From positions 24,144 to 88,143 of the forward strand of contig CAZUKV010000001.1 of NCBI GenBank assembly GCA_964621075.1: a stretch of DNA of 64,000 bases. Direction: 5' to 3'. The translations under genes were made by a program, and so were the position numbers. This document shows, one piece after another, positions 4,026 to 23,220 of this stretch (position 1 is the stretch's first letter; the number at the start of each line of letters is the position of its first letter). The DNA is from an uncultured bacterium. GTDB lineage: Bacteria > Macinerneyibacteriota > Macinerneyibacteria > Macinerneyibacteriales > Macinerneyibacteriaceae. The notes beneath the pieces are model-generated. The model was not told the origin of the DNA. It saw only the letters and a list, made by a program, of their open reading frames with translations, and did not search any database.

Positions 4026-4027
4026 TG

Positions 4028-4297: not shown

Positions 4298-4314
4298 AAA
4301 TACCTCCTGTTAAA

Positions 4315-5962: not shown

Positions 5963-6019
5963 GGCAAAGAGATAATACCATCTTAGATTAAGGTGTCAAG
6001 GGAAATATCTTAACAGTAC

Positions 6020-6325
6020 TTATTTTCTTCTTAACTCTTTTTTATTATCATGATCCCTTACTATAAAAAACAATATTGCAACTAAACAAAATATAAGAGC
6101 AAAAGGAACCAAAATAGGAATAACTACAGAAAAAACAATTATAACCGGTAAGAAAAGAATGAGCCAGACTAATGAAAAAATTGCCAGTATAAATTTAACT
6201 AAAACATATGCAAGCACTCCAAGAATTAAAAATTTTATAAATCCAACAAATGTGAACGCAATTAAGCCTGGAACTAAAAGATATAAAAAAATAAAACAAA
6301 GTGTTATAATTCCTATTAATCTCAT
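6020..6325 (-). CDS. Small hydrophobic membrane protein, function unknown
   Basis: Three predicted transmembrane segments; no recognisable motif. Confidence 0.35.
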   Translation of the reverse strand: MRLIGIITLCFIFLYLLVPGLIAFTFVGFIKFLILGVLAYVLVKFILAIFSLVWLILFLPVIIVFSVVIPILVPFALIFCLVAILFFIVRDHDNKKELRRK

Positions 6326-6402
6326 AAATCCTCCTTATAATAAAGGACAAATTAGATAAAAAAAATGTTTCAATTCTTTTTTTTTTAATTATAATCAAAT
6401 TC

Positions 6403-7365
6403 ATGAATTTATCAAATATCAAAAAAGAACTGATTAAAGTTTTCAAGGATGGAATTTCGACAACCTACACTCTTTTAAAAATAATGATACCGGTTAGTAT
6501 TATAACAAAAATTCTTAAAATTACAGGAATAATTAATATCATAGGGGCCTTATTATCCCCCCTAATGGAAATTGTTAATCTACCCGGGGAATACGGGCTT
6601 GTATGGGCCACAACTATGATTACTAATATTTATGGTGGTATTATCGTTTTTTTATCACTCTTCAAAAATCACCCTCTTTCGGTTGCTCAGGTTACAATTC
6701 TTTCCTCAATGATGTTAATTGCCCACACTTTTTTAATTGAAAATACAATATGTAAAAAAGCAGGGATTAAATTTTGGGTAATATCTTCCTTTAGATTTAC
6801 AAGTGCTTTTGTTTTAGGGTTTTTACTGAATAATGTATATACCCTCTTTTCTCTCCATGAAAAAAAAGCGAAAGTTCTTTTTGACTCAAATTCTAAAACC
6901 GGAGAAACCACCATAGCCTGGATTCTTAATGAAATTGAAAACTATCTTTATATATTTTTAGTGATATTATCACTTTTATTAATAATATACATATTCAAAA
7001 AAACAGGATTTATTAATATTTTCAATAAGATATTTAATCCTGTATTAAATTTATTTGGAATTAGTAAAAAAGCAACTCCATTGACTGTAATAGGAATGAC
7101 ACTGGGTCTGGCATATGGAGGAGGGTTAATTATTAAAGAGGCAAACTCCGGTCACCTTAGTAAAAAAGATATTTTTTTCTCCCTTATTTTTCTAACCCTC
7201 TCTCACAGTCTTATTGAAGATACTCTTCTGATGCTCACAATAGGAGCTTCAATAACCGGAGTTTTAATCGGAAGACTATTATTTACACTAATTTTAGTTT
7301 CAATAATTGTTAAAATTTTTCAAGGTGTTTCCGAAAAATCTTTTCATAAATATTTTCTCACTTAA
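6403..7365 (+). CDS. Polytopic membrane protein, possibly a nucleoside-recognition (Gate) domain family member (YjiH/SpmA-like)
   Basis: Multiple transmembrane helices. N-terminal region resembles the Gate domain. Weak call. Confidence 0.4.
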   Translation: MNLSNIKKELIKVFKDGISTTYTLLKIMIPVSIITKILKITGIINIIGALLSPLMEIVNLPGEYGLVWATTMITNIYGGIIVFLSLFKNHPLSVAQVTILSSMMLIAHTFLIENTICKKAGIKFWVISSFRFTSAFVLGFLLNNVYTLFSLHEKKAKVLFDSNSKTGETTIAWILNEIENYLYIFLVILSLLLIIYIFKKTGFINIFNKIFNPVLNLFGISKKATPLTVIGMTLGLAYGGGLIIKEANSGHLSKKDIFFSLIFLTLSHSLIEDTLLMLTIGASITGVLIGRLLFTLILVSIIVKIFQGVSEKSFHKYFLT

Positions 7366-7895
7366 CTGATTTTATTATATCCCAATTCAAGTGCCTCAAT
7401 ATTAGTATTATAAGCTTTCTCCGGCAGCACCTCTTTTAAGACTTTTTTAATTGTATCTATAGAAACAACCCCGCTTTTTTTTATTAAAGCACCGATCATA
7501 ATTATATTTGCAAAAAGAGGTTTTTCAAAATTTTCCAAAGATAATTCCGTAGCAGAAATATCAATCATCTCTTTACCTGCTTTTTTTTCAGGCTTAAATA
7601 CAGAACCATCATAGATAACAACCGCGTCTTTAGATAATTTATCCTTGAAAAGCTTTAATCCTGCTTCAGCCATAACAACAAAATAATCCGCTTTTTCTAC
7701 ATGAGGGAAATCTACAAAATCTTTTGCAACAATTACTTCTGCTCTTGTTGTAGTCCCTCTTGATTCAGAGCCATAAGCCTGTGATTGAGCAGAATAAAAA
7801 CCTTCTTTTACAGCACTTCTTGCTAATATATTTGCTGCTAAAATAACTCCCTGGCCACCAATACCTGAAAACATAATTTGTTTCATTTTTCCCAC
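7362..7895 (-). CDS. 2-oxoacid:ferredoxin oxidoreductase gamma subunit (cluster 1)
   Basis: SGIGGQGVILAANILA motif of OFOR gamma subunits. Confidence 0.8.
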   Translation of the reverse strand: MGKMKQIMFSGIGGQGVILAANILARSAVKEGFYSAQSQAYGSESRGTTTRAEVIVAKDFVDFPHVEKADYFVVMAEAGLKLFKDKLSKDAVVIYDGSVFKPEKKAGKEMIDISATELSLENFEKPLFANIIMIGALIKKSGVVSIDTIKKVLKEVLPEKAYNTNIEALELGYNKIS

Positions 7896-7910
7896 TCCCT
7901 TCAGTTCTAC

Positions 7911-8645
7911 TTAAAATTTTCCAATCATTATTTTGTCATTATTGTATTCATCTTTGTAAAATTCACTTTTCTCTTTAAAGTGATCGAGCATTTTCATAGG
8001 GTCTCTCAAATTATTTCTTTTACCATATTGAACAGGACATCCGGTAAGCACATCGAGAAAATAAAACTCGTTACTGTTTATAGCTTCTTTTATAGTTTCT
8101 TTTAATTGTTTTGCATGATACGCAGTATATCTGTAAACATTATCTGCTCCAGCTCCTTTAACAAGTTTTACCAGATCAAAAGGTCTATCTTCATTTCCAA
8201 GAGGTGTTGTCATTGTTTTGGCTCCTTTTGGAGTTGTTGCTGATGCCTGGCCACCTGTCATCCCATAAATATTATTATTACCACAAATAACAGTAATTGG
8301 TAATCTTCTTCTTGCAGCATGAATTAAATGATTTCCTCCAATAGTTGCTAAATCACCATCTCCACTCATTACAACAACCTCAAGATCAGGATTTGCTTTT
8401 TTTACACCAGTAGCATAAGCAATAGCTCTTCCATGAGTGGTATGAAGGGTATCAACATTTAAATGAGGTGAACCAATCCATCCTCCACAACCAATCCCTG
8501 AAACCACTACAAGATTATCCTGATCATAGTTCAGTTCACCTAACGCATTTACAAAAGCATTAAGTAAGATCCCATGTCCACAACCTGGACAAAAAGCAGT
8601 TGGAAAAACTTCTTTTCTTATATATTTTAAATATTCAGTTTTCAT
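7911..8645 (-). CDS. 2-oxoacid:ferredoxin oxidoreductase beta subunit (TPP-binding), cluster 1
   Basis: CPGCGHG...GDGD...GGNH...NNxIYGMTGGQ motifs. Confidence 0.85.
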   Translation of the reverse strand: MKTEYLKYIRKEVFPTAFCPGCGHGILLNAFVNALGELNYDQDNLVVVSGIGCGGWIGSPHLNVDTLHTTHGRAIAYATGVKKANPDLEVVVMSGDGDLATIGGNHLIHAARRRLPITVICGNNNIYGMTGGQASATTPKGAKTMTTPLGNEDRPFDLVKLVKGAGADNVYRYTAYHAKQLKETIKEAINSNEFYFLDVLTGCPVQYGKRNNLRDPMKMLDHFKEKSEFYKDEYNNDKIMIGKF

Positions 8646-8658
8646 TTTTCCTCCTTAA

Positions 8659-9792
8659 TTATATTTTATTAATTATCTCTTCAGGCTCTATAACTTCACC
8701 ATCAGCCCTGTTTACACCAACAACCTGACATTTTACAAATCGTTCAACTTCTCTTCTCAGCTGTCCCAGATTCATTTCGGGAACTACAACTTTTTTAACT
8801 TTTTCTCCAAGTTCCTTTATTTTGTTTACAGGCATTGGCCAAACAGTTTTAAGTCTCAACATCCCTACTTTCTCACCATTATTTCTGGCTCTTTTAACAG
8901 CCTGCAAGCCAGCCCTTGCTGCGAATCCAAAAGAAATAATTAATTTATCCATATCATCGGTATAATATTCTTCATATTCTAATATATCATCAAGATTTTC
9001 GCTTATTTTTAATCTTAAATGATCTACGAGTTTTTCCTGAACTTCTCTATCCTGAGTTTTTCTATATCCATTAGGATCATGTGTGGAACCTGTAACAAGT
9101 AACCTTTCTCCATCTCCGAAAGATGGCATGCTGGGAACTCTTTCTAATGGCTCAAATCCTCCAAATGGAGGAGTATCATTTCCTTTTTTCCTATTGTAAA
9201 CTTCAACTTCTTTTTTTACATTAACAACTTCCCTTAAATGACCGGTTGCCTCTTCCAAAAGAACAATAACCGGTGTTCTATATTTTTCAGCTAAATTAAA
9301 AGCTCTTATAGTTTCATAATAGATCTCTTCTACTCCCCAGGGAGATATAGCTATCATTTCATGTTCGCCATGTGTTCCCCATCTGGCTTGCATTAAATCT
9401 CCCTGTGCTGTTCTTGTTGCCTGTCCGGTAGAAGGACCTGTTCTCTGTACATCAACAACTACAGCAGGCGTTTCTGTCATAATACCAAGTCCCAGATTTT
9501 CCATTTTTAGAGACATCCCAGGCCCTGATGTTGCTGTCATGCTTTTTGCTCCTGTCCATGACGCCCCAATAACAGCACCCATAGCTCCTATTTCATCTTC
9601 CATCTGTACAAAAGTTCTATCTAAATCATTAAATCTTTCAACTATTGTTTCCATAATTTCACTTGCGGGAGTAATAGGATATCCTGCAAAAAAAGTACAG
9701 CCAGCTGCAATAGCACCTCTTGCACAGGCTTCATCTCCCTGCATGAAATATTTACCTTCTTTTAATGGTACTTTATTTATTTCTGTTGCCAT
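8659..9792 (-). CDS. 2-oxoacid:ferredoxin oxidoreductase alpha subunit, cluster 1
   Basis: Length and motifs (GYPITPASE, TATSGPG) of the OFOR alpha subunit. Confidence 0.85.
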   Translation of the reverse strand: MATEINKVPLKEGKYFMQGDEACARGAIAAGCTFFAGYPITPASEIMETIVERFNDLDRTFVQMEDEIGAMGAVIGASWTGAKSMTATSGPGMSLKMENLGLGIMTETPAVVVDVQRTGPSTGQATRTAQGDLMQARWGTHGEHEMIAISPWGVEEIYYETIRAFNLAEKYRTPVIVLLEEATGHLREVVNVKKEVEVYNRKKGNDTPPFGGFEPLERVPSMPSFGDGERLLVTGSTHDPNGYRKTQDREVQEKLVDHLRLKISENLDDILEYEEYYTDDMDKLIISFGFAARAGLQAVKRARNNGEKVGMLRLKTVWPMPVNKIKELGEKVKKVVVPEMNLGQLRREVERFVKCQVVGVNRADGEVIEPEEIINKI

Positions 9793-9793
9793 A

Positions 9794-10024
9794 TTATTCC
9801 TCCTTGCTCTTTATCGTAATTGCAAGATCGGGACAGTGTGTTGAACACTGCATGCACCCAATGCAATCATCTTCTCTAACAGCTTTTACTATTACAGTTC
9901 CTTTATCATTAATCTTGTCAGCTTTTTCAAAAACATTCTTGGGACAAATTTTCTGACAAATATAACATCCCTTGCACCAATCTTCACGTATGATAACCTC
10001 ATAAGACATTTTAACTCCTTTCAT
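9794..10024 (-). CDS. 2-oxoacid:ferredoxin oxidoreductase delta subunit (2x[4Fe-4S] ferredoxin), cluster 1
   Basis: Two CxxCxxCxxxCP motifs in 76 aa. Immediately precedes the alpha subunit (OorD-like position). Confidence 0.8.
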   Translation of the reverse strand: MKGVKMSYEVIIREDWCKGCYICQKICPKNVFEKADKINDKGTVIVKAVREDDCIGCMQCSTHCPDLAITIKSKEE

Positions 10025-10025
10025 A

Positions 10026-11210
10026 CTATATTTTACCTTCTTCTTTAAATTTTTTAATATCCTCCTTAGAATAACCCATTTCTTTCATTATCTCTTCTGT
10101 ATGTTCTCCTAAGAGTGGAGGGTGTCTATCAAATTTAACCGGCGTTTTGCTCATCTTTATTGGACTCCCAACAAGTTTAACTTTATCAGCAGTAGGATGA
10201 TCTACCTCTACAACCATATTTCTGTGTTTGGTCTGAGGGTCGCCGAAAACATCACTAAACTTATTTATTGCTCCTCCAGGTACATCATATTCTTCCATTT
10301 TGTCAATCCAATATTCTTTATCGTTCTGCTTCAAGATCTTTTCAATAGAAGATATTACTTCCTCTCTATTTTCAACTCTTGCACTATTTGTTTTATATTT
10401 TTCATCTGTTTTCCATTCAGGTTTATCAACCATATCACAAAAGCTCAACCATTGTTTATGTGATCCAACAGCAACAATAATATATCCATCTTCAACTTTA
10501 AAAGCCTGATAAGGAACTATTGTTTGATGCTGATTCCCTCTTCGTTTGGGGTTTTCTCCTGTTACCAAATAACTGGAAGCAAGATTTACCAACCAGGAAA
10601 TTTGACTATCTACAAGCGCAACATCTATCATTTGTCCTTCTCCTGTTTTTTCCCTATGGTGTAGGGCTGATAAGATACCAATAACAAGATACAGGGCTGA
10701 AGTTATATCATCTATGGCTACAGGTACTTTCATTGGAGGGCCGTCAGGCTCTCCATTTATACTCATAATTCCGCCCATTGCCTGTGCAAGAACATCAAAC
10801 CCGGGCTTTTCTGATTTCGGTCCAGAAGTTCCAAATCCTGTTATCAACCCATATATTATTTTAGGATTGATTTCTTTTACATCTTCATATGTTAAATTTA
10901 ATTTTTTCAGCGTTTTCATTCTAAAATTGAAAAGAATTATATCCGCCCATTTAATTAATTTTTCTAAAATATCTCTTCCTTTTTTTAGATTTAATGTAAA
11001 ACTTTTTTTGTTTCTGTTAGCGGTGAAATAATATGCTGATTCACCACCTTTAAATGGAGGTCCCCATGCTCTTGTGGTATCTCCAGTCTTGGGCATTTCA
11101 ATTTTTATAATTTCAGCACCCAAATCTCCAAGAATCTGTGATGCAAAAGGACCTGCTAAAACTCTTGATATATCAAGAACCTTTATACCCTCTAAAGATT
11201 TTTTATTCAT
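10026..11210 (-). CDS. Family III CoA-transferase (CaiB/BaiF-type)
   Basis: N-terminal GIKVLDISRVLAGPFASQILGDLGAEIIKIE is diagnostic of family III CoA transferases. Confidence 0.8.
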   Translation of the reverse strand: MNKKSLEGIKVLDISRVLAGPFASQILGDLGAEIIKIEMPKTGDTTRAWGPPFKGGESAYYFTANRNKKSFTLNLKKGRDILEKLIKWADIILFNFRMKTLKKLNLTYEDVKEINPKIIYGLITGFGTSGPKSEKPGFDVLAQAMGGIMSINGEPDGPPMKVPVAIDDITSALYLVIGILSALHHREKTGEGQMIDVALVDSQISWLVNLASSYLVTGENPKRRGNQHQTIVPYQAFKVEDGYIIVAVGSHKQWLSFCDMVDKPEWKTDEKYKTNSARVENREEVISSIEKILKQNDKEYWIDKMEEYDVPGGAINKFSDVFGDPQTKHRNMVVEVDHPTADKVKLVGSPIKMSKTPVKFDRHPPLLGEHTEEIMKEMGYSKEDIKKFKEEGKI

Positions 11211-11211
11211 C

Positions 11212-12771
11212 TTAACCCTCCTTTTTTTTGGTAAGAGGAGTTACAATAACTATTGATAATATACTCAATACCAGTGCCACGTATACTTTATCAATATTCA
11301 TGCCTATAAAATTTGTTATTGCTTCTTTATTTAATACAAAAATTAAAATTCCTAATGTTGAAACAACCAGGGCTGTAATTGCTGCCTGTGGTGTTACCCA
11401 GGTTCCTTTAATTTTTTTATATCCTAAAACAATCCCTAATATCACGACAATTGCTGCTGCCCCTCTAATTCCATAAGTAATATATGCTGCCTCAAGAATT
11501 CCTCCTCTTATAAAAATTGCCATTGGAATTGAAATAATACCAACTGTAATTGTCATTGCTTTAGAAAAACTCAATAATTTTTTATCAGAAGCATTTTTAT
11601 TTATTAATAAATGATAAAAATCCTTAACAAGAATAGTGCTCACTGCAAACATAACCGGAGCAACCGTTGATAAAATTGCAGCTAATATTCCTGCAGCTGC
11701 TAATCCACTTAACCAATCCGGAAGAAACTCTGCATTCATAAGAAGAAAAGGTAGTGTTTCTTTAGCAGATGTCAATTTCTCTAAATTGCCTATTGTTCCT
11801 GTTCTAACTGCTATTCCAAGGGTTGCAACGATAATTCCAAGTGGTGCTATTAAAAGAGCACTTAACATTGCTCCTCTTTTTGCAGTATTTATATCTTTAG
11901 CCGCAAAAACAGGTTGAATTGAAGCCTGAGAAGCAAAACCAGCAAGAATACCTCCTAATAACCATGCAATCATTTTCCCAAACCCCAGAGAAAAAGGATC
12001 CTTATAACTTTTAATCATTTCGCCTGCTTCTTTAATCGTATTTCCTTCTGCGACAAATTGAGAATTCAAATTTTCAAATAATCCTGAAAATCCTCCTACA
12101 TGATTCAATGTAAGAATAAAGACAACAATAATAGTTGAAAACAGTAAAATAATATGCATCAAATTTGTAAATGCTATTGATTTCATTCCACCCTCATATA
12201 CATAGAAAATAACAAATATACCTGAAACAATAATTGCTATGCTGTAAGGACTAAATAAAATAGATTCAAATCCAAACATGGATGATAACACTCCAGAAAA
12301 ACTTCTCAAAAAGGATCCAAATAATTGAGAAACAAGACTTCCAATTGCCTGTAATTGCAAATATGATAAAATTATAAAAGCAACTACAAATGCAAGGGAA
12401 GCAACTATCCTTACATTTTTATTAAATAATTTTTCTAACATTTCTCCTACTGTGTGAACATTATTTTCTCTATAAATTTTTGCTATTGTTAATCCAAATA
12501 AAAACATCCCCAAAGCTGTAGAAACATTATACCAGAGTGGAAATAATCCAGAATTGAATGCTTTTTCAGAAGTTCCAATTGTACTCATTCCACCAAGCCA
12601 TTCACCTACAACAGTAACAGTTACAAGCAGAACACCCATATTCCTTCCAGCAATTAAGAAATCTGAAGAAGATTCTTTTGCTGCAAACTTTTTTACAATT
12701 TTACCTGCAATAGCTAATAAAACAAAATATCCAATAATCACCAATAATTGCACCCAATGCATAATAATCAA
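11212..12771 (-). CDS. Sodium:solute symporter family (SSF) transporter
   Basis: About 13 transmembrane segments. N-terminal ...FLIAGRNMG... is a typical SSF signature. Confidence 0.7.
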   Translation of the reverse strand: MIIMHWVQLLVIIGYFVLLAIAGKIVKKFAAKESSSDFLIAGRNMGVLLVTVTVVGEWLGGMSTIGTSEKAFNSGLFPLWYNVSTALGMFLFGLTIAKIYRENNVHTVGEMLEKLFNKNVRIVASLAFVVAFIILSYLQLQAIGSLVSQLFGSFLRSFSGVLSSMFGFESILFSPYSIAIIVSGIFVIFYVYEGGMKSIAFTNLMHIILLFSTIIVVFILTLNHVGGFSGLFENLNSQFVAEGNTIKEAGEMIKSYKDPFSLGFGKMIAWLLGGILAGFASQASIQPVFAAKDINTAKRGAMLSALLIAPLGIIVATLGIAVRTGTIGNLEKLTSAKETLPFLLMNAEFLPDWLSGLAAAGILAAILSTVAPVMFAVSTILVKDFYHLLINKNASDKKLLSFSKAMTITVGIISIPMAIFIRGGILEAAYITYGIRGAAAIVVILGIVLGYKKIKGTWVTPQAAITALVVSTLGILIFVLNKEAITNFIGMNIDKVYVALVLSILSIVIVTPLTKKKEG

Positions 12772-14105
12772 CCTCCAATTTTACTGATAATAGATGCTGA
12801 AGCTTTTTTTGCTTCGCCCATTGCTTTAATTACAGTAGCTGCACCACTTACAATATCACCTGCAGCCCAAACTTTTTTTAAGCTTGTTTGCATCTTATTA
12901 TCCACAACTATTCTACCCCACCTATCAAATTTTAAATCATTTTCTTTGTTGCTAATCATTTTATTGGGTCTTTGCCCAATAGCTTCTATAAAAATATCTG
13001 TTTTTATTCTAATAAATTCATCTGTGCTATCAATTGCATTTCTCCCATCTTCAGTTTTCCCGACAGTTTTCATCTTTCTAAAAAGAATCTCTTTTATTTT
13101 TCCATTCTTATTTGAAATTATCTCCAAAGGATTTAATAATGTTTTTATATCTATACCTTCTTCTATTGCATGCTTGATCTCTTCATTTCTTGCAGGCATA
13201 TCCTCTCTAAGTCGCCTGTAAACTATTGAAACTTTAGAACCTAATCTTCTTGCAACCCTTGCTGAATCAACAGCCACATTCCCTCCACCAACAATTAAAG
13301 TTCTTTTCCCCTTTTTAATTGGGGTATGATATTCCGGAAACCTGTATGCTTTCATCAAATTAACTCTGGTCAAAAATTCATTAGCAAAATATACCCCTAT
13401 AGCATTCTCACCTTTAATATTTAATTGTCTTGGAAGGCCTGCTCCTACAGATATAAAAATACCATCAAATTTTTCCTGAAGTTCCTCCAAATAGAGCGTT
13501 TTCCCGATTAGATAATTTTTTTTAAATTTAACTCCCATTTTTTTTAACTTATCTATCTCTCTATTAATAATCTCATCGGGAAGTCTAAAATTTGGAATAC
13601 CATATCTTAACACCCCGCCAAATTTATGAAGTGCTTCGAAAATAACTACATCAAACCCATTTTTTATGAGCTCATTAGAAGCTGTAAGTCCAGCAGGGCC
13701 CGATCCCACTACCGCAACTTTTTTATTATTTTTCTTAATTATTCTATTTAATTCTACCGAATAATTATCTGCAACAAACCGTTCCAGCTTTCCAATATTG
13801 ATTGGTGGTTCCAAAATACATTCGGCCTCGCACTGATTTTCCTGTGGACAAACTCTTCCACATATTGCAGGTAAAATATTCTCCTCATTTATAATTTTAT
13901 AAGCTTTTTTGAATTTTTCTTCTTTTATAGCCCTGATAAATCCCGGGATATCCACTTCAACCGGACAACCCTTAATACATAAACCACATTCTTTACATCT
14001 ATTGGCTTCTTTGATAGCTTCTTCTATTCTATATCCTTTATTAACTTCTTTAAAATCTTTAATTCTTATTTTAGGAGATCTTTCTTCAGGCTCTATTCTC
14101 ATCAT
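12768..14105 (-). CDS. NfnB/SudA/GltD-like NADPH-dependent oxidoreductase large subunit (2x[4Fe-4S] + FAD/NAD(P) domains)
   Basis: CKECGLC...CP and CGRVCPQENQCEAEC clusters followed by VAVVGSGPAGL dinucleotide fold. Paired with an NfnA-like subunit upstream. Confidence 0.75.
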   Translation of the reverse strand: MMRIEPEERSPKIRIKDFKEVNKGYRIEEAIKEANRCKECGLCIKGCPVEVDIPGFIRAIKEEKFKKAYKIINEENILPAICGRVCPQENQCEAECILEPPINIGKLERFVADNYSVELNRIIKKNNKKVAVVGSGPAGLTASNELIKNGFDVVIFEALHKFGGVLRYGIPNFRLPDEIINREIDKLKKMGVKFKKNYLIGKTLYLEELQEKFDGIFISVGAGLPRQLNIKGENAIGVYFANEFLTRVNLMKAYRFPEYHTPIKKGKRTLIVGGGNVAVDSARVARRLGSKVSIVYRRLREDMPARNEEIKHAIEEGIDIKTLLNPLEIISNKNGKIKEILFRKMKTVGKTEDGRNAIDSTDEFIRIKTDIFIEAIGQRPNKMISNKENDLKFDRWGRIVVDNKMQTSLKKVWAAGDIVSGAATVIKAMGEAKKASASIISKIGG

Positions 14106-14940
14106 TCATCTCTTTTTCTATTTTTTTTTCTAACTTGCATTCTGAGTTTTCATATTGCCGATTTCTTTTTATTAACTCATCAAAATTAACTTTATAACCA
14201 TCAAAAATAGGACCATCCACACATGTATATTTAATTTCACCGTTATATGACAATCTACACCCTCCGCACATACCCGTACCATCAATCATAATTGTATTCA
14301 AGCTTACAAGAGTTTTTAATTTATATTTTTTTGTATTTTCTACTACTTTTTTCATCATAATTAAAGGACCAACTGCAATGCAGAGATCATATTTTTTTTC
14401 TCTCAACAATTTTTTTAACCTTTTTGTAACAAAACCTTTCTCACCGTATGAACCATCATCTGTCATGCAGTAAAGATTATCTACATACCGTTCTATTTCA
14501 TCTATTAAAATTAAAGAATCTTTATTCTTTGCTCCAATAATTGAATCAATATGCTTTATTTTTTTATTCATAGAAAATTCTTTTATTTTTGGGAATATAG
14601 GTGCAATACCAATCCCGCCGCCAATAAAAAGAATATTTTTAAAATTTTCTTCAGTTTTTACATTATTTCCAAGAGGTCCCAAAATATCGGGAATGATCTC
14701 TTTAGTTTTCATCTCTGATAAAATTTTTGTAGTTAAGCCAACAACCTGAAATATTATTCGGATATTTCCTTTTTTTGGATTTATATCGGCTATAGTCAGA
14801 GGAATTCTTTCTCCCACTTTTTTCACCTTCAATATCAAAAATTGCCCTGCTGAATAGTGGTTTGCTATTTCCGGATTATGAACCCAAAAAGAATATATAT
14901 TTTTACCTAATTTATCTTTAGAAACTATCTGATTTCTCAT
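14086..14940 (-). CDS. NfnA/SudB/PyrK-like FAD + [2Fe-2S] electron-transfer subunit
   Basis: Ferredoxin-NADP reductase-like fold. C-terminal GTGMCGGCR...C cluster. 20-nt overlap with the downstream large subunit. Confidence 0.7.
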   Translation of the reverse strand: MRNQIVSKDKLGKNIYSFWVHNPEIANHYSAGQFLILKVKKVGERIPLTIADINPKKGNIRIIFQVVGLTTKILSEMKTKEIIPDILGPLGNNVKTEENFKNILFIGGGIGIAPIFPKIKEFSMNKKIKHIDSIIGAKNKDSLILIDEIERYVDNLYCMTDDGSYGEKGFVTKRLKKLLREKKYDLCIAVGPLIMMKKVVENTKKYKLKTLVSLNTIMIDGTGMCGGCRLSYNGEIKYTCVDGPIFDGYKVNFDELIKRNRQYENSECKLEKKIEKEMNDENRA

Positions 14941-15000
14941 GGGTTAATAATAATAGAGTTAATATTTATGTCAATTATAATTCATATAGAAAATAAAAAC

Positions 15001-15255
15001 TTAATTTTTTAAAAGATCTAATACTTTTTTCTTAATAATATTTCTTTTCTCGGGAAGTCTAATAACATTTGTACCAAAATAATCCCATCTATCTGTTAAA
15101 TATATGACTGCTCTTTTTTGTTTTGATTTATAATTTAAATCATCTGTTATGCAGAATTTTTTCTCTATTTTTTTAGATATTTTAATATTAGAAAAATATT
15201 TTTTTATATATTTTTTTAAATATTTACTTTCTATTCTAAAATCAATTTCTGCCAT
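15001..15255 (-). CDS. Small hypothetical protein (84 aa)
   Basis: ORF overlapping the end of the IMPase gene by 14 nt (possible coupling). No recognisable motif. Confidence 0.3.
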   Translation of the reverse strand: MAEIDFRIESKYLKKYIKKYFSNIKISKKIEKKFCITDDLNYKSKQKRAVIYLTDRWDYFGTNVIRLPEKRNIIKKKVLDLLKN

Positions 15256-16042
15256 TATATTTCTCCAGATTTGAAATTACTTTTTCATGAATAATGCCAT
15301 TACTTGCAATAATATTATTTGTATTAAAAAGCCATTTTTTCCCATTGAGATCTGTTATCGTTCCTCCTGCCTCTTCAACAAATAATTTTCCTGCAGCCAT
15401 ATCCCATATTTTCAATCCTTCTTCCCAGTAAACATCATATCTCCCCGCTCCTACATAAGCCAAATCCAAAGCAGCAGAACCCAGTCTTCTTATTCCCCTT
15501 GCTTTTAAAGCAAGTTTTTTAAAATTACTTATATTATTATACCCATTTTTCTCTCCTCGATTATAAGAAAATCCAGTTGCAACCATTGCTTTACTTAATT
15601 GTTTCCTTGAAGATACTTTTACCTTCTTTTCATTTAAGAAAGCACCTTGATTTTTTATTGAATGAAAAATTTCGTTCTTTACTGGGTCATAGATAATACC
15701 AAAAACAATTTCATTATCCCATATTAAAGCAATAACAACAGAAAAATGAGGTATTCCAAAAGCGAAGTTATTAGTACCATCAATAGGGTCAATTACCCAG
15801 TACTTACTTATCTCCATAGAATGATTCTTTTTAGTTTCCTCTGCAATGATTGGAATATCATACTGTTTAAGTTGATTTATTATATATTTTTCAGATTTAT
15901 AGTCATAATTTGTCACAAGTTCTCTTGATTTTTTTTCATCAATTTTCTTATTGCCATTATAGAACCCGTCTCTTAATATTTCTCCAGCATTTCTTATTAT
16001 ACCTTTTAATTTATTGAAAACTATTCCTTCAACAATTTCCAT
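15242..16042 (-). CDS. Inositol monophosphatase family protein (SuhB-like)
   Basis: WVIDPIDGTNNF metal-binding motif and a GAAALD-like C-terminal motif. Confidence 0.8.
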   Translation of the reverse strand: MEIVEGIVFNKLKGIIRNAGEILRDGFYNGNKKIDEKKSRELVTNYDYKSEKYIINQLKQYDIPIIAEETKKNHSMEISKYWVIDPIDGTNNFAFGIPHFSVVIALIWDNEIVFGIIYDPVKNEIFHSIKNQGAFLNEKKVKVSSRKQLSKAMVATGFSYNRGEKNGYNNISNFKKLALKARGIRRLGSAALDLAYVGAGRYDVYWEEGLKIWDMAAGKLFVEEAGGTITDLNGKKWLFNTNNIIASNGIIHEKVISNLEKYNGRN

Positions 16043-16149
16043 ACTTCTCCTTTTTTCAATTATAACATTCAGATTTATTATATAAAGTTATATCTAAATA
16101 CTTGCAATATTTAGTATAAATATTATTATTAATTAAGGAGGGATATTTT

Positions 16150-17379: not shown

Positions 17380-18419
17380 TTTGAAGATTGAATTTTAATA
17401 ATTTCGTTTTTTGAATTAACAAGAATATTTTTTCCATTTTTTAAAAAACTTGAATAAATAGAATAGTTACTACCACTTTCAGCATAATTAAAGATTATAT
17501 ATATATTTCCAGGAGTAATATCTTCAAGATTAGATAATTTTTTTAAAAATATAATATCAACAGGTTTCTCGTACCATCCCTTCATCAGGCTTGATTCCAG
17601 AAGATTACTATTAATATTATCCTTTATAAAATTCCTGAGGTTTCCGCCATTATTTACTAAATGCTTCTCAATCTGAAACTTAATTTTTATTAGATTATTA
17701 TACATCTCATTTCTATTATCATGTTTTTGTTCAATTAGGATAAAATGAAGAGCAAATACAATAACAAATATTACAACTGTTCTATAATAAGCAAGATTAA
17801 AATAACGTTTCCTCAATAGGTTAATTAAATATATTAAAAGAATAATAGAAAAAAAACCAAAAAGAAGCCATAAAAAAGTGTTATCATAAATATAGAAATT
17901 TCCTTTTAGAGCATTGTTAAAAAACAAAATTAATTCTTTTATCCCCTGATAAAATACATAAATTATTTTTATTGTTAAAATACCCATTAAGAAAAATAAA
18001 AAGAATGATTTTTCATGTTTTTTTCTTTTAATATCAACCCCACTATCTCTCAAGTATGAAACAAATGAATATATATTATCATATTTATAAGAGGAAAGTG
18101 TTGTTTTTTTAGTTTTATTATTTGTTTTATAAAAAACCTGATAATAATCTCTTCCCCTGCCGCTATATGAAACAAACAAAATATTTTCAATATTATTAAT
18201 CTTGATAACTTTATTGGAGAATAGTTTAGAAACATAGAGATAGTTGCCTAAAATATAAACTTTATGTAAAATTTCTTTTATAAATATTGTAATAAGAATA
18301 ACTGAAATAATTAAAAAAATATGAAAATCAAAGATTATATAAAATGAAATTAGGGAGATTAAAATCAATAAAGCAAACAAAATGAGATATGCTTTATTTA
18401 ATTTTAATCTCCTGTCCAT
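17376..18419 (-). CDS. Polytopic membrane protein, function unknown
   Basis: Several hydrophobic helices; extremely K/N/I/Y-rich; no motif recognised. Confidence 0.35.
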   Translation of the reverse strand: MDRRLKLNKAYLILFALLILISLISFYIIFDFHIFLIISVILITIFIKEILHKVYILGNYLYVSKLFSNKVIKINNIENILFVSYSGRGRDYYQVFYKTNNKTKKTTLSSYKYDNIYSFVSYLRDSGVDIKRKKHEKSFFLFFLMGILTIKIIYVFYQGIKELILFFNNALKGNFYIYDNTFLWLLFGFFSIILLIYLINLLRKRYFNLAYYRTVVIFVIVFALHFILIEQKHDNRNEMYNNLIKIKFQIEKHLVNNGGNLRNFIKDNINSNLLESSLMKGWYEKPVDIIFLKKLSNLEDITPGNIYIIFNYAESGSNYSIYSSFLKNGKNILVNSKNEIIKIQSSN

Positions 18420-18949
18420 TACTTACCTAAATCAAAACCTTTATTAAAGGCTTTTTCATTTAAATCTTCTGTTCCACTTGGAACACTTTTTTTTACTGTT
18501 TTCAGCATCCCTTTTTTAGAAACTTTTTCTGTTACAGCAGTAATATAACCAAGAGAAACAATATTTGCAGATATTTCACTGTCCATAATATCTCTTGATA
18601 TTTTTCCAAAAGAAATTTTATGTAAATTTTTTATATCATAATCTGAAGCATCGACATAATTATCATCAACTAAAACAATTGTATTATCATCAATATGCTT
18701 GATTTGCCTTTCCAAGCCGGACTGACTCATTGCTACTACTAAATTGGCTGTAGTTATCTCGGGATAATCAATTGGATCATTAGATATAATAACATACGCT
18801 TCAGTCATTCCACCTCTTGATTCTGGACCATAGCTCTGAGTCTGGGTGCTATATTTTTTGTCTTCTATTGCAGCCGCTTCAGCTAATATTTTCCCGCTCA
18901 GAATCATTCCCTGACCGCCTGCTCCACTGAAAACTACTTCATAACGCAT
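18419..18949 (-). CDS. korC: 2-oxoglutarate(-type):ferredoxin oxidoreductase gamma subunit (cluster 2)
   Basis: SGAGGQGMILSGKILA gamma-subunit motif. Cluster is adjacent to sucCD. Confidence 0.75.
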   Translation of the reverse strand: MRYEVVFSGAGGQGMILSGKILAEAAAIEDKKYSTQTQSYGPESRGGMTEAYVIISNDPIDYPEITTANLVVAMSQSGLERQIKHIDDNTIVLVDDNYVDASDYDIKNLHKISFGKISRDIMDSEISANIVSLGYITAVTEKVSKKGMLKTVKKSVPSGTEDLNEKAFNKGFDLGK

Positions 18950-18950
18950 A

Positions 18951-19766
18951 TTATTCCTCCTTAGCTTTAGCCATTATTTTTTTATCATATTCTTCAACAT
19001 ATTCAGGTTTAGTTACATTTTTAAATATTCCGGTTATTACTTTATCTTCTAATTCTTCTTCAGATAATTTTTCTGCCTGTTTTTTAGTTATTACACTTTC
19101 CTTAATCCATTCAAACATATCAACAGGAGTTTTCATTTTATTTCTTCTGCCAAATTGAATATGACAGTTCGTAGCTACTTCCACAATAGAAAACCCTTTA
19201 TTAGAAAATGCTTTGAAAATATAATTTTCCATCTGTTTAGGATTAGTTACCGACGCTCTTGCAGCAAATGTAGCACCGGCCCCAATTGCAAGATCCATAA
19301 AATTAAATGAATTATCAATATGACCATATTGAGCAGTTGAAGCAAAATAAGATTTGGGTGTTGTTGGAGAATACTGGCCTCCAGTCATGCCATAAATATT
19401 ATTATTAAATACTATAGCAGTAACGTCAATATTTCTTCTTGCTGCATGAATTAAATGATTTCCTCCAATTGCTCCTGCATCACCATCACCTGTATATACA
19501 ACAACATTTAGTTTTGGTTTTGCCATTTTTATTCCTGTTGCAAAGGCAAGAGCCCTACCATGTAATGTGTGAAGGCTGTTAAAATCGAGATATCCGGTAG
19601 CTCTACTTGAACAACCAATTCCAGATATTGCCATTACATCATCTTTTTTCCATCCCATTTTATCAATAGCCCTAATGGAGCTCTTCAAAATAATACCATT
19701 CCCACATCCAGCACACCATATATGAGGAAATTTATCCTGTCTAATATATTTATTATAATCAAACAT
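18951..19766 (-). CDS. korB: 2-oxoglutarate(-type):ferredoxin oxidoreductase beta subunit (cluster 2)
   Basis: WCAGCGNG...GDGD...GGNH...NNNIYGMTGGQ TPP-binding motifs. Confidence 0.8.
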   Translation of the reverse strand: MFDYNKYIRQDKFPHIWCAGCGNGIILKSSIRAIDKMGWKKDDVMAISGIGCSSRATGYLDFNSLHTLHGRALAFATGIKMAKPKLNVVVYTGDGDAGAIGGNHLIHAARRNIDVTAIVFNNNIYGMTGGQYSPTTPKSYFASTAQYGHIDNSFNFMDLAIGAGATFAARASVTNPKQMENYIFKAFSNKGFSIVEVATNCHIQFGRRNKMKTPVDMFEWIKESVITKKQAEKLSEEELEDKVITGIFKNVTKPEYVEEYDKKIMAKAKEE

Positions 19767-19767
19767 A

Positions 19768-20892
19768 TTACAACACTCCTTTTACTTTCTCAATTATTTC
19801 ATCAGGAGATATTAGTTCACTATTTAACTTATTCAATGAAACAATTTTTTCTTTGTCTACATACTTTTTAGCTTCATCTGCAAGCTGTCCCTTGTTCATT
19901 TCAACTACAACAATATTATCAACTTTATTACCTAATTCTTCTATTCTCTTTCCAGGGAAAGGCCACAATGTAACCGGTCTTAAAAGTCCAGCTTTTACAT
20001 TTTCTTCATTTAGCTTTTTAATTGCCATTTTTGCACTTCTTGCCTGAGTCCCCACAGAAAGAAGTAAGACATCCATATCTTCAGTATTAATTTCTTCATT
20101 TTTTTGGATATCATCAAGATTCTTTTCTATTTTTCTATACATTCTATCAATATTTTTTTGAATATTCTCTCCGCTTACATCAGGAAATCCAGTTTCGTCA
20201 TGAAACAATCCTGTAATATGAAATCTATATCCCTCACCATAATTTGCTGTTATAGGGATATCATTTTCAATATAAAAAGGCTCATAATTATTTTGATCTC
20301 TTTTGATTTTTCTTCTTTCAACAATATTTATTTTTTTATCATCTACAAAAACAGATTCTTTCATGTGCCCGAGTATTTCATCCATCAAAAAAACCACAGG
20401 TTGTCTGTATTTTTCAGCCAAGTTAAAAGCACGTATTACTTCATAATAAATTTCATTTACAGATTCTGGATAGATGGAAATAATAGGATGGTCTCCATGG
20501 GTTCCCCATCTTGCCTGCATCAAATCTCCCTGTGATGGTCCTGTAGGATGACCTGTAGAAGGCCCACCCCTCATAACACTAACTACAACAATAGGGACTT
20601 CTCCCATTATTGCCATACCTAAAGCTTCCTGCATTAATGAAAATCCTGGACCTGAAGTAGCGGTCATTGATTTGGCTCCTGCAAGGGATGCCCCTATAAT
20701 TGAAGCAATAGAAGCTATTTCATCTTCCATTTGAACAAAACGACCTCCAACTTTTGGAAGCTCTACCGAGCATACTTCTGCAACTTCAGATGAAGGTGTA
20801 ATAGGATATCCACCAAAAAATTTCAAGCCAGCTTTAACTGCCCCCAAAGCACATGCTTCATTTCCCTGTAAAAACTTTACTTTTTCAGCCAT
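19768..20892 (-). CDS. korA: 2-oxoglutarate(-type):ferredoxin oxidoreductase alpha subunit (cluster 2)
   Basis: Paralogue of the 8659-9792 alpha subunit (GYPITPSSE, TATSGPG). Confidence 0.8.
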   Translation of the reverse strand: MAEKVKFLQGNEACALGAVKAGLKFFGGYPITPSSEVAEVCSVELPKVGGRFVQMEDEIASIASIIGASLAGAKSMTATSGPGFSLMQEALGMAIMGEVPIVVVSVMRGGPSTGHPTGPSQGDLMQARWGTHGDHPIISIYPESVNEIYYEVIRAFNLAEKYRQPVVFLMDEILGHMKESVFVDDKKINIVERRKIKRDQNNYEPFYIENDIPITANYGEGYRFHITGLFHDETGFPDVSGENIQKNIDRMYRKIEKNLDDIQKNEEINTEDMDVLLLSVGTQARSAKMAIKKLNEENVKAGLLRPVTLWPFPGKRIEELGNKVDNIVVVEMNKGQLADEAKKYVDKEKIVSLNKLNSELISPDEIIEKVKGVL

Positions 20893-20906
20893 TTCAAACC
20901 TCTTTT

Positions 20907-21116
20907 CTATTTTTTTTCTTCAATTTCAATTGCAAAATCCGGACAGATATTTTCACATATCAAACATCCGATACATTTATCTTCAGAGTTAATTTCAACT
21001 TTAAAATTTTCTTCATTTGCCCTAATCGCACCTGTTGGACAATTATTATAACATAGTTTGCAGGACTTACAGTAGTCCGGTTTTATAATAATTTTAAATT
21101 TTTTCTTTCCAGCCAC
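20907..21116 (-). CDS. korD: 2-oxoacid:ferredoxin oxidoreductase delta subunit (ferredoxin), cluster 2
   Basis: Two CxxCxxCxxxCP motifs in 69 aa. Confidence 0.75.
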   Translation of the reverse strand: MAGKKKFKIIIKPDYCKSCKLCYNNCPTGAIRANEENFKVEINSEDKCIGCLICENICPDFAIEIEEKK

Positions 21117-21178
21117 AATTTCCTCCTTATCTCTTTTTACTCAAGTATAGAAATATTTAATTTCATGTAAAGATATTT

Positions 21179-22045
21179 CTATAATTTTTCTTTTAAAATA
21201 TCAGCAATTTGTGTTGGCAATTCTGCTACTTCCACTTTATTATTTTTTAACACTTTAATTTTTTCTGATGCACTTCCTCCGCTTCCTGAAATGATAGCTC
21301 CGGCATGTCCCATTCGCTTACCTTTTGGGGCTGTTTTCCCAGAAATAAATGCAATTACAGGTTTTTGCATATTGTTTTTAATATACTCTGCAGCAATCTG
21401 TTCATCATTTCCTCCAATTTCACCTATCAAAACTACAGCATCAGTTTCATTATCTTTTTCAAATTCTTTTAAACAATCTATAAATTTTGTTCCTATATAA
21501 GGATCTCCTCCTATACCAATTGCAGTAGATTGCCCAAATCCATTAGAAGTTAAATTATAAACAACTTCATAGGTGAGTGTTCCGCTTCTTGAAATAACAC
21601 CAATATTACCTTTCTTGAATATTTTAGCTGGCATGATTCCAAGCTTTGTTTCTCCTGGAGTAATAATGCCAGGACAGTTTGGACCAATCAATCTAACATT
21701 ATTATTTTTTGCATAATTAACTGCCTGTAGCATATCCTTAAATGGTATTCCTTCTGTAATTGTCACAATTGTTTTTATACCAGCATCAACAGCTTCACAT
21801 ATAGCATCTGCTGCAAATTTTGGAGGAATATATAAAATGGAAGCATCTGCACCTGTTTCTTTTACTGCTTTTTTTACAGTACTAAAAACTGGAACATCTT
21901 CTACTTTTTCTCCTTCTTTAAAAGGCGTAACCCCTCCAACAATATTTGTTCCATATTCTATCATTTTTTTTGTATGAAAACTGCCATCCCTACCGGTTAT
22001 ACCCTGCACTATTACTTTTGTATTTTTATCAACAAAGATAGACAT
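21179..22045 (-). CDS. sucD: Succinyl-CoA synthetase alpha subunit
   Basis: VIVQGITG...GxxGxxHT, CoA-binding and His-loop (GHAGAIISG) motifs. Confidence 0.9.
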
Positions 22046-22059
22046 ATATCCTCCTTATT

Positions 22060-23220
22060 TTATTTAATTTTTTCATATACTGATTTTAATTTTTCAACAG
22101 ATTTTTTTAAATCTGTAAAAACTTCATATCCCAGTTTCTTTAATATCTTTTTTCCTTCATCTTCATTGGTTCCTGTTAATCTTATAATTATTGGAACATC
22201 TATCTCTAATTCTTTTAATGCAGTTTTAAATCCATTTGCCACATCATCACATCTTGTAATTCCTCCGAAAACATTTATAAAAATTGCTTTTAATTTTTTA
22301 TTTCTCTTTATATATTTCAATGCATCTATAACTTTTTTAGGGCTGGAGGACCCTCCTATATCTAGAAAATTAGCAGGATTCATTCCATAATGCTTAACAA
22401 TATCCATTGTGGCCATTGCCAGTCCAGCACCATTAACCATACATCCCACATCTCCATCAAGCTGTACAAAACTTAACCCTTTTTCTTTGGCTTCTACTTC
22501 ATATTTCTCATCTTCTGTGATCACTCTATTTTTTTTTATTTCTTCATGTCTAAAAAGAGAATTATCATCAATTTTTATTTTTGCATCCAAAGCTAAAAAA
22601 TCATTTTTTGAGGTAAAAACAAGTGGATTAATTTCAATAAGAGACGTGTCATATTTTTTATATATTGAATAAATTTTGTTAATAAAATCATAGAAATTTT
22701 TATAAAACTTCTTTGCCATATTTAAATGAAGAAATAATTCTCTTACATGGTACTCTTTCAAACCACAGAGGGGATCAACCCATACTTTTTTTATCGCTTC
22801 AGGTTTTTTCTCTGCAATCTCTTCAATTTCAGTTCCTCCTTCAGAAGATATTATAAAAATTAATTTCTGTTTTTCTCTATCTGTTAATAAACTAAAATAA
22901 ATTTCTTTAGAATAATCAACCTGTTCTTCAAAAAGGATGGAATTAATCATCTCTCCTTTATCATCTGTTTGATGAGTTATAAGACGTTTACCCAGTAAAC
23001 TTTTTACAGCTTTTCTGGCACGTTCAACAGAATTTGTTAGTTGAACCCCGCCAGCTTTACCTCTACCTCCAGCTAAAACCTGTGCTTTGGCAACTCCCTT
23101 ACCTTCAAACTTTTCTGCCTGTTTTTTTAATCCTTCTAAATTATAGAAAAGTTTTCCTTTAGGGGTGTTAACACCTTCTTTTTGAAAAATATTTTTTGCT
23201 TGATATTCCATTAATTTCAT
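22060..23220 (-). CDS. sucC: Succinyl-CoA synthetase beta subunit (ATP-grasp)
   Basis: MKLMEYQAK N-terminus and an ATP-grasp domain. Precedes sucD. Confidence 0.9.
   Translation of the reverse strand: MKLMEYQAKNIFQKEGVNTPKGKLFYNLEGLKKQAEKFEGKGVAKAQVLAGGRGKAGGVQLTNSVERARKAVKSLLGKRLITHQTDDKGEMINSILFEEQVDYSKEIYFSLLTDREKQKLIFIISSEGGTEIEEIAEKKPEAIKKVWVDPLCGLKEYHVRELFLHLNMAKKFYKNFYDFINKIYSIYKKYDTSLIEINPLVFTSKNDFLALDAKIKIDDNSLFRHEEIKKNRVITEDEKYEVEAKEKGLSFVQLDGDVGCMVNGAGLAMATMDIVKHYGMNPANFLDIGGSSSPKKVIDALKYIKRNKKLKAIFINVFGGITRCDDVANGFKTALKELEIDVPIIIRLTGTNEDEGKKILKKLGYEVFTDLKKSVEKLKSVYEKIK

Follow-up and report, generated by a model that had tools for sequence, protein, structure and literature searches.

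Gene organization of the locus

The DNA analysed here, referred to as the window, is a stretch of 64,000 nt from an uncultured bacterium of the Macinerneyibacteriota (assembly GCA_964621075.1, contig CAZUKV010000001.1, positions 24,144 to 88,143). Its minus strand carries, from position 14940 down to 7362, eight co-directional open reading frames (ORFs) that encode two NfnAB-like subunits, a sodium:solute symporter family (SSF) transporter, a family III CoA-transferase and the four subunits of a 2-oxoacid:ferredoxin oxidoreductase (OFOR). A first-pass annotation had placed and named these genes; all eight ORFs were found where it had put them, and the domain content obtained from profile searches (Pfam, NCBIfam) agreed with each of its labels. 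The features of the locus are as follows.

14947..14974, minus strand: promoter-like site TTGACA-16-TATTAT, a sigma-70-like consensus match at 11 of 12 positions
14086..14940, minus strand: nfnA-like small subunit (FAD/NAD-binding, [2Fe-2S]), 284 aa, PF10418 and PF00175
12768..14105, minus strand: nfnB-like large subunit (two [4Fe-4S], FAD, NADPH), 445 aa, Fer4_20 and Pyr_redox_2
11212..12771, minus strand: SSF transporter, PF00474 at 120 bits
10026..11210, minus strand: family III (CaiB/BaiF) CoA-transferase, SUGCT-like, 394 aa, PF02515 at 443 bits
9794..10024, minus strand: OFOR delta, ferredoxin-like with two [4Fe-4S], Fer4 family matches
8659..9792, minus strand: OFOR alpha, 377 aa, POR_N and PFOR_II, with YPITP, Arg117 and the clade-specific Ser236
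7911..8645, minus strand: OFOR beta (thiamine pyrophosphate and proximal [4Fe-4S]), 244 aa, TPP_enzyme_C PF02775, with the clade-specific Trp56
7362..7895, minus strand: OFOR gamma (POR), PF01558 at 124 bits, TIGR02175 at 101 (cut-off 81)

The intergenic distances between the maximal ORFs, read from nfnA to gamma, were −20, −4, 1, 1, 1, 13 and 15 nt, the first of them being the 20-nt overlap of nfnA and nfnB. A GGAGG-type ribosome-binding site was observed before each internal gene, within the 3' end of the gene preceding it, and the true starts are likely the ATG codons that follow GGAGG, namely 12762 for SSF, 10009 for delta and 7886 for gamma. The SSF start at 12762 stands 8 nt past a GGAGGT motif and corresponds to Met4, which is invariant among orthologs; for delta, the Shine-Dalgarno motif AAAGGAG precedes the second ATG (10009). 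With these later ATGs, the gaps ahead of SSF, delta and gamma become 5, 16 and 24 nt, respectively. The earlier description of the junctions as overlaps or gaps of no more than 20 nt is thus correct for most of them, but one junction reaches 24 nt with its likely start. The 3' end of gamma overlaps a convergent gene (6403-7365, plus strand) by 4 nt.

The promoter-like site falls in a gap of 60 nt, the only sizeable one upstream of the cluster, and was the best minus-strand consensus match within 6300-16300; as the total number of matches in the scan equalled the shuffle expectation, it is to be read as a consensus match only. It ends 7 nt ahead of the nfnA ATG and no Shine-Dalgarno motif follows it, so the operon transcript may be leaderless. 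A consensus-type scan found no minus-strand terminator-like hairpin inside the cluster, and a search of Rfam at gathering score found no riboswitch or RNA leader in the window or in seven module loci. Because of the overlaps and small gaps, the GGAGG motifs inside each upstream gene, the one promoter-like site and the lack of an internal terminator-like site, the gene layout is, as read from the sequence, that of a single, translationally coupled operon.

Conservation of the gene cluster

The transferase of the window has a 100% identical counterpart in a metagenomic protein and shares 81% identity with the one from Candidatus Mcinerneyibacterium aminivorans, whose beta subunit is 90% identical to that of the window. 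The window thus derives from a near relative of this uncultured lineage. The eight genes were found in the same order in Ca. M. aminivorans (L001) and at five loci of more distant relatives, whose transferases are 65-67% identical (L005, L006, L097, L098 and L099). Since the flanking genes differ among these loci, the arrangement is not due to chance, and the view of the first-pass annotation that the genes form one operon-like unit is borne out by this shared order as well as by the tight junctions.

Outside these relatives a shorter series was observed, consisting of SSF, transferase, delta, alpha, beta and gamma without nfnAB. It occurs in Ca. Vecturithrix granuli UASB270 (KSB3; L008), at ten WOR-3 loci which have their own shared synteny (L088, L089, L101, L103-L105, L108-L110 and L113), and in a separate contig (L115). 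The nfnAB genes are kept with the OFOR genes across the Mcinerneyibacteriota-type loci at 50-58% identity. The conserved unit therefore consists of six genes, SSF, CoA-transferase and delta-alpha-beta-gamma, and nfnAB is a lineage-specific addition found only in Mcinerneyibacteriota-type loci. The proposal of an eight-gene, self-contained module accordingly stands as regards an operon-like unit, but not as regards its extent, because nfnAB is absent from WOR-3, KSB3 and L115.

The WOR-3 proteins are 48% (SSF), 54% (transferase), 47% (delta), 50% (alpha), 55% (beta) and 29% (gamma) identical to those of the window, and such near-equal divergence of the six would be expected of an ancient unit inherited together. 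A metagenome scan anchored on the transporter yielded 19 loci, 16 of them with sequence downstream of the SSF gene; the module genes followed in order in 15 of the 16, through gamma in 10, and up to the end of the contig in the other 5. The only SSF ortholog found without the module (L106, 55% identity) is followed, within 1-5969 of its contig, by a methyltransferase gene, an ORF without assignment and HyuA/HyuB hydantoinase/oxoprolinase genes. These neighbours were considered as a clue to the substrate of the transporter and set aside, a single case being too weak.

Approached from the transferase, the 80 nearest loci in species-representative genomes included only two, both of Vecturithrix, with an adjacent OFOR. 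Such a pairing is therefore as unusual as the first-pass annotation had supposed, and it is the property of one clade of transferases. When the neighbouring ORFs of 14 loci were clustered, no gene other than the six or eight recurred from one lineage to another; what the WOR-3 loci have in common besides is housekeeping synteny alone, with purA, queA and a gene resembling glycerate kinase.

In similarity to the window, the KSB3 copy equals the deeper Mcinerneyibacteriota-type copies. In L005 (13995-14984), L006 and L007, a gene for a Y1 (IS200-type) transposase immediately follows OFOR gamma. This similarity, together with the transposase gene abutting the module, suggests that the six genes are able to move as a block. 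At another locus of Ca. Vecturithrix sp. (L002/L009, 8586-5749), the module lacks the SSF gene and divergently adjoins a three-subunit molybdenum hydroxylase of the xanthine dehydrogenase family (FAD, 2Fe-2S and MoCo subunits).

The oxidoreductase belongs to a separate clade

All four OFOR subunits match their Pfam families above the cut-offs, which places the enzyme in the four-subunit OFOR superfamily, and the alpha subunit scores 515 bits against NF006412 (cut-off 411). The catalytic motifs YPITP, Arg117, the Cys ligands and Met129 are intact, the beta subunit carrying the Cys motifs CPGCGH and GIGC. GYPITPASE and DVQR(117) are conserved between the window and each of the 15 clade loci that were compared; the YPITP motif and an Arg that binds the substrate 1-carboxylate have been assigned their roles previously (PMC5020499). 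In contrast to these general matches, every Oor equivalog model was missed, with scores of 368 against a cut-off of 579 for OorA (NF007206), 236 against 364 for OorB (NF007207), 81 against 216 for OorC and 54.7 against 93 for OorD (NF007205, delta subunit).

The window contains a second OFOR outside the operon, which had been noted earlier as having the same D-A-B-G gene order beside sucCD, and which is indeed present at 21116-18419. It is called cluster 2 below, and the OFOR of the operon cluster 1.

18419..23220, minus strand: sucC, sucD and the delta, alpha, beta and gamma genes of the second OFOR (family assignments; outside the operon)
21116-20907, minus strand: cluster 2 OFOR delta
20892-19768, minus strand: cluster 2 OFOR alpha
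19766-18951, minus strand: cluster 2 OFOR beta
18949-18419, minus strand: cluster 2 OFOR gamma

Between cluster 1 and cluster 2, identity is 49% for alpha, 43% for beta and 31% for gamma. The beta subunit of cluster 2 matches 8ys5_C, from a solved 2-oxoglutarate enzyme, at E 7e-92 and nearly reaches the OorB cut-off (361/364). A split class I fumarase (24593-23754 and 23829-23224) lies just upstream of sucCD, and a 347-aa ORF (18419-17376) without a Pfam or NCBIfam match comes after cluster 2 gamma. By these family assignments, the minus strand from 17376 to 24593 looks like a partial branch of the tricarboxylic acid (TCA) cycle.

In a neighbour-joining tree of beta subunits (100 bootstraps), cluster 1 and 19 homologs formed one clade in 100/100 replicates, and this clade was sister to cluster 2 plus 8ys5 in 95/100; MmOGOR and the Sulfolobus enzymes fell outside that grouping. 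The substrate pocket was compared with that of StOFOR1 from Sulfolobus, for which mutagenesis showed that Lys49-beta and Asp468-alpha' are among the residues setting 2-oxoacid specificity: the K49I and D468A variants lost 2-oxoglutarate activity and kept pyruvate activity (PMC5020499). At the position of Lys49, cluster 1 has beta Trp56, and 6n2n_B, 8ys5_C and cluster 2 have Arg; at that of Asp468, cluster 1 has alpha Ser236, and 6n2n_A, 8ys5_A, 1yd7 and cluster 2 have Leu. The pocket residues of the 2-oxoglutarate enzymes (6n2n, 8ys5) were taken from sequence alignments. Cluster 2, with beta Arg in GIGCSSR and alpha Leu in TGLFH, thus has a pocket of the 2-oxoglutarate type. With regard to the fifth pocket residue of StOFOR1, Ser41 of the alpha chain (domain III), the solved chains matched by the gamma subunit did not include StOFOR.

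The motif GIGC[GAS][GAS]W was present in 120/120 of the best beta homologs, and Trp and Ser were both invariant across the 15 clade loci. The alignments and the tree place the cluster 1 OFOR in a distinct clade, here termed Trp/Ser, and indicate that it is not an ordinary 2-oxoglutarate enzyme. The expectation of the first-pass annotation that cluster 1 acts on a different 2-oxoacid gains support from the separate clade, the two altered pocket residues and the missed Oor models. The firm grouping with 2-oxoglutarate enzymes that it had named as the contrary outcome was not obtained, the relation in the beta tree being that of a sister clade.

Seven clade members were sampled by way of the beta subunit. 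Two stand in the six-gene module, two after an acyl-CoA dehydrogenase gene and ferredoxin-domain electron transfer flavoprotein (Etf) genes, and one after a class III aminotransferase gene; 2/7 stand before a DUF4438 gene, and none of the seven has TCA-cycle genes beside it. At L114 (1575-8777) and L116 (1783-8009), delta-alpha-beta of the Trp/Ser clade, with no gamma gene called, occur near EtfB and ferredoxin-domain EtfA genes. In L116 the OFOR comes directly after the Etf genes with an acyl-CoA dehydrogenase gene ahead, and in L114 three other genes lie between. Typed with a view to a link with glutaryl-CoA, the acyl-CoA dehydrogenases beside related OFORs and transferases scored 264 against the acryloyl-CoA reductase model and 243 against the non-decarboxylating glutaryl-CoA dehydrogenase model, both far under the cut-offs.

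The CoA-transferase resembles succinate-using enzymes

The transferase matches CoA_transf_3 (PF02515) over its full length (positions 1-366 of 366), which makes it a member of family III. Among solved structures, the best match was human SUGCT (9br6; E 1.5e-106, residues 2-378), a dicarboxyl-CoA:dicarboxylate transferase preferring succinate and glutarate (PMC10871334). Behind it ranked a Brucella CaiB/BaiF protein, a formyl-CoA transferase entry of 409 aa, YfdE, Frc/YfdW, benzylsuccinate CoA-transferase, racemases and CaiB, in this order. The first-pass annotation had listed Frc, CaiB and YfdW among the candidate clades; Frc, YfdE and CaiB proved to be more distant than SUGCT, which was not on that list. 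The matches included neither a model nor a solved structure of HadA, FldA or BaiF, which it had listed too.

The catalytic Asp168, which is the counterpart of SUGCT Asp212 in the alignment, does not vary among 14 orthologs. Trp49 and Tyr60, which align with SUGCT Trp91 and Tyr102 lining the acid-binding site, are also conserved. The best NCBIfam models were those of succinate-glutarate (NF052585, 394.5 against a cut-off of 750) and succinyl-CoA:mesaconate transferases (339 against 700), neither cut-off being reached. The equivalog cut-offs of Frc (301/504), CoA:oxalate transferase (287/522) and CaiB (162/413) were missed as well, and the Frc alignment spans only residues 4-205. Because SUGCT is the best solved relative, its catalytic Asp, Trp and Tyr are kept and the best models are of the succinate type, we infer that succinate/succinyl-CoA is one substrate pair of the transferase.

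Oxalate/formyl-CoA chemistry was also considered for the module and rejected, as the OFOR has YPITP where oxalate oxidoreductase has YPIRP, an oxalyl-CoA decarboxylase is lacking, and the transferase is closer to SUGCT than to Frc or YfdE. In an Aerophobetes contig (L090, 10001-19366), a 55%-identical transferase gene heads a series of thiolase, 3-hydroxyacyl-CoA dehydrogenase, enoyl-CoA hydratase, acyl-CoA dehydrogenase, EtfBA and aldehyde:ferredoxin oxidoreductase genes, which by its gene content looks like a cluster for the degradation of glutarate or a short-chain acid.

NfnAB and the symporter

The nfnA product scored 352 bits against NF004862 (cut-off 220), and its best solved relatives were Thermotoga maritima NfnA (4ylf_A, E 2e-77) and Pyrococcus furiosus NfnI (5jca_S, E 5e-71). 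The nfnB product scored 548 bits against TIGR01316 (cut-off 472) and matched 5vj7_A, 5jca_L (NfnI) and 4ylf_B at E 1e-132 to 1e-142. By these matches, the two subunits look like a normal NfnAB pair, the small one being PyrK-like and the large one GltD-like. The transporter clearly belongs to the SSF family (cut-off of PF00474, 22.8 bits). All subfamily models tried, PutP, PanF, ActP, MctP and MctC, scored far under their cut-offs, the best being PutP (102/515).

Proposed function and alternatives

The anatomy of the operon, its conservation and the pocket signature are observed; the reaction steps set out below are all inferred from sequence. The reading that we favour, at a little under an even chance, is that a 2-oxoacid other than 2-oxoglutarate is oxidized to an acyl-CoA, its CoA is passed to succinate, SucCD forms ATP and Nfn balances the redox pools. 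The symporter would import the substrate or its precursor, and the OFOR would oxidatively decarboxylate the 2-oxoacid to acyl-CoA, CO2 and reduced ferredoxin. Probable substrates are 2-oxoacids that are small or are not C5 dicarboxylic acids, such as 2-oxobutyrate, pyruvate or 2-oxoadipate. The transferase would then move the CoA to succinate, giving the free acid and succinyl-CoA, which SucCD would convert to succinate and ATP; sucCD lies ∼6 kb from the operon in this genome. NfnAB would equilibrate reduced ferredoxin, NADH and NADPH in amino-acid fermentation, as in peptide-fermenting Thermococcales.

This oxidative reading is favoured because of the analogous OFOR clusters of fermenters, the peptide-oriented genes, the conservation of thioester energy by the transferase and the pathways of Vecturithrix. 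Clusters in which an OFOR is joined by an acyl-CoA partner that conserves ATP occur widely among amino-acid fermenters (PMC13285125; bioRxiv 10.64898/2026.01.29.702580). The window has three tandem M42 (glutamyl-aminopeptidase-type) paralogs at 32371-35443 on the minus strand, and a CoA-transferase that conserves thioester energy would, by analogy, suit a fermenter. Ca. Vecturithrix granuli UASB270 already possesses four pyruvate-to-acetyl-CoA systems, and its methylmalonyl-CoA pathway, which is complete, requires a propionyl-CoA:succinate transferase (PMC4312070); both points are circumstantial.

Several observations weigh against it. The module includes no aminotransferase or dehydrogenase gene to make the 2-oxoacid; import is the usual task of SSF proteins, and the environment offers few 2-oxoacids in free form. 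The genes run from transporter through transferase to OFOR, as the steps of the reverse pathway would, and sucCD is unlinked to the module in most loci. The acid-binding site of the transferase is not identical to that of SUGCT, His253 being replaced by Asn209. Moreover, the K49R variant of StOFOR1 preferred pyruvate (PMC5020499), so an Arg at this position does not by itself bind 2-oxoglutarate and the residue code is not simple; the pocket positions, as aligned, do not name a substrate.

The same three functions could operate in the reductive direction, which we regard as unlikely but as the main rival reading. An imported acid (propionate, a branched-chain or aryl-acetic acid, or succinate) would be activated by succinyl-CoA and carboxylated by the OFOR to a 2-oxoacid that is an amino-acid precursor, with NfnAB making reduced ferredoxin from NADPH in Mcinerneyibacteriota. 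The gene order would then be the pathway order, and the three functions would form a complete linear route that requires no outside enzyme, in keeping with the finding that more than 20 loci showed no further conserved partner gene. Among the named transporter models that come nearest, weak as they are, are those of the monocarboxylate/acetate carriers MctP, MctC and ActP, and a substrate with a hydrophobic side chain would fit well with Trp in the pocket. In rumen bacteria and methanogens, OFORs are well known to carboxylate imported fatty acids reductively, but known assimilatory routes usually work with ATP-dependent ligases rather than transferases. The species name of the relative, aminivorans, denotes an amino-acid consumer and the window has several peptidase genes, both of which argue against an assimilatory role, and the documented OFOR clusters of fermenters are oxidative (PMC13285125; bioRxiv 10.64898/2026.01.29.702580).

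It is also conceivable, if improbable, that cluster 1 is a second 2-oxoglutarate:ferredoxin oxidoreductase whose succinyl-CoA serves as the CoA donor for an imported acid such as glutarate, the resulting acyl-CoA being processed by enzymes encoded elsewhere. The clade is sister to the Oor-type enzymes and annotated korAB by pipelines, SUGCT-type enzymes draw CoA from succinyl-CoA, and the Aerophobetes transferase of L090 (55% identical) stands in a cluster resembling one for glutarate degradation. However, two pocket positions are unlike those of both structurally characterised 2-oxoglutarate enzymes, an Arg/Leu enzyme already lies beside sucCD in the genome, and no acyl-CoA-processing gene accompanies the module in any locus; the stoichiometric use of 2-oxoglutarate to activate another acid would be of little metabolic advantage. 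It would surprise us most if NfnAB docked on the OFOR to form a NAD(P)+-reducing 2-oxoacid dehydrogenase, as PadH does in phenylglyoxylate:NAD+ oxidoreductase. OFORs with a GltD-like subunit do exist (PadEFGHI), the PadG, PadI and PadE models match the subunits of the window weakly, and nfnAB is in the same predicted operon as the OFOR genes and conserved together with them in Mcinerneyibacteriota-type loci. Yet both subunits are canonical Nfn proteins when compared with the T. maritima and P. furiosus structures, the transporter and transferase genes stand between nfnAB and the OFOR genes, and the WOR-3, KSB3 and L115 modules have no nfnAB.

Relation to known systems

The cluster 1 OFOR shares with OorDABC/KorDABG enzymes (8ys5; Magnetococcus marinus OGOR, 6n2n) the four subunits, the D-A-B-G order, YPITP, Arg117 and the beta Cys ligands, and it is their sister in the beta tree. 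It differs from them in two pocket residues (beta Trp56 for Arg, alpha Ser236 for Leu), in its short beta subunit (244 aa) and in missing the Oor cut-offs; its genes sit with a symporter and a CoA-transferase, not with sucCD. HpdDEFG-HpdJ-HpdK of Clostridium scatologenes (OFOR, phosphotransacylase and acyl kinase) and the clusters of OFOR with an ADP-forming ligase are alike in encoding a four-subunit OFOR with an enzyme that handles acyl-CoA, in anaerobes that degrade amino acids (PMC13285125). The module of the window differs in having a family III CoA-transferase as partner, a dedicated Na+ symporter within the unit and an OFOR that is KOR-like rather than of the VOR/IOR branch. Because the partner is a CoA-transferase, ATP would come indirectly, via succinyl-CoA and SucCD.

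Compared with SUGCT (9br6) and the bacterial succinate-glutarate and succinyl-CoA:mesaconate transferases, the transferase keeps the catalytic Asp and the residues corresponding to SUGCT Trp91 and Tyr102. Unlike SUGCT-type enzymes, it falls below the equivalog cut-offs, has Asn209 for His253 and is partnered by an OFOR instead of a glutaryl-CoA dehydrogenase. The logic of the favoured oxidative reading is that of the acetate:succinate CoA-transferase/succinyl-CoA synthetase (ASCT/SCS) cycle of anaerobic eukaryotes and some bacteria, in which a decarboxylating enzyme yields an acyl-CoA, the CoA passes to succinate and SucCD makes ATP. This likeness concerns how the module might work and is not one of family membership; to our knowledge, the known ASCTs are of the family I type and not of family III. 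Both Nfn subunits match NfnAB (4ylf; 5jca) at E 1e-71 to 1e-140, and they are unlike it in being encoded by the first two genes of an OFOR operon, in a lineage-specific manner.

All four component families are already known, and there are precedents for operons in which an OFOR is combined with an enzyme acting on its acyl-CoA product. New are the family III transferase as the partner, the SSF symporter within the unit, the uncharacterised Trp/Ser clade of OFORs and the six-gene block shared across candidate phyla. Neither a description of the module nor a mention of Mcinerneyibacterium was found in the searchable literature, whose coverage is incomplete, so that this is weak evidence.

The genes of the Trp/Ser clade are routinely called korAB and have been used to close the TCA cycle in reconstructions of uncultured anaerobes. 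If the clade acts on another 2-oxoacid, such reconstructions are wrong at a central node. The oxidative route, if true, would add a third handling of OFOR-derived acyl-CoA, family III transfer, beside the phosphotransacylase/kinase and the ADP-forming ligase. A bolder proposal, speculative and in our estimate doubtful, is that the Trp/Ser clade constitutes a new OFOR substrate class (e.g. for 2-oxoadipate or 2-oxobutyrate), which together with the symporter and a family III acyl-CoA:succinate transferase would form a new route to ATP via succinyl-CoA, shared and partly horizontally exchanged among Mcinerneyibacteriota, KSB3 and WOR-3, its genes being mis-annotated as korAB and caiB. The two-residue signature (beta Trp, alpha Ser) is open to mutagenesis, and the hypothesis is directly checkable with recombinant enzymes; the six-gene unit is compact, portable and fit for heterologous expression.

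Flanking genes and other features of the window

Directly upstream of nfnA lie an IMPase-family gene (16042-15242) and an 84-aa ORF without a family match (15255-15001), an order that is also found in Ca. M. aminivorans (L001). A gene of the phosphofructokinase family diverges at 16150. The G+C content of the lineage is low (0.22-0.37 in the window). Horizontal transfer into this genome was considered for the raised G+C of the cluster and rejected, because other conserved enzyme genes in the window rise likewise.

Elsewhere in the window, a sigma-54 activator-type ATPase gene (31351-32319) comes after the M42 paralogs, and a 408-aa ORF on the minus strand (2063-3289) encodes TrmD (tRNA m1G methyltransferase) fused to a SAM-dependent RNA methyltransferase domain (PF09936). 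At ∼54600-57200 the gene orientation flips from minus to plus, and the GC skew goes from ∼−0.2/−0.3 to ∼0/+0.09, with a minimum of the cumulative skew near 56 kb. No dnaA is present; a DnaC/IstB-like ATPase gene occurs at 61633-62685. The orientation switch is flanked by a DUF5128 beta-propeller gene, a GAF-GGDEF gene and tRNA-Pro(GGG), and judging from orientation and skew, the region could be a replication-related switch point.

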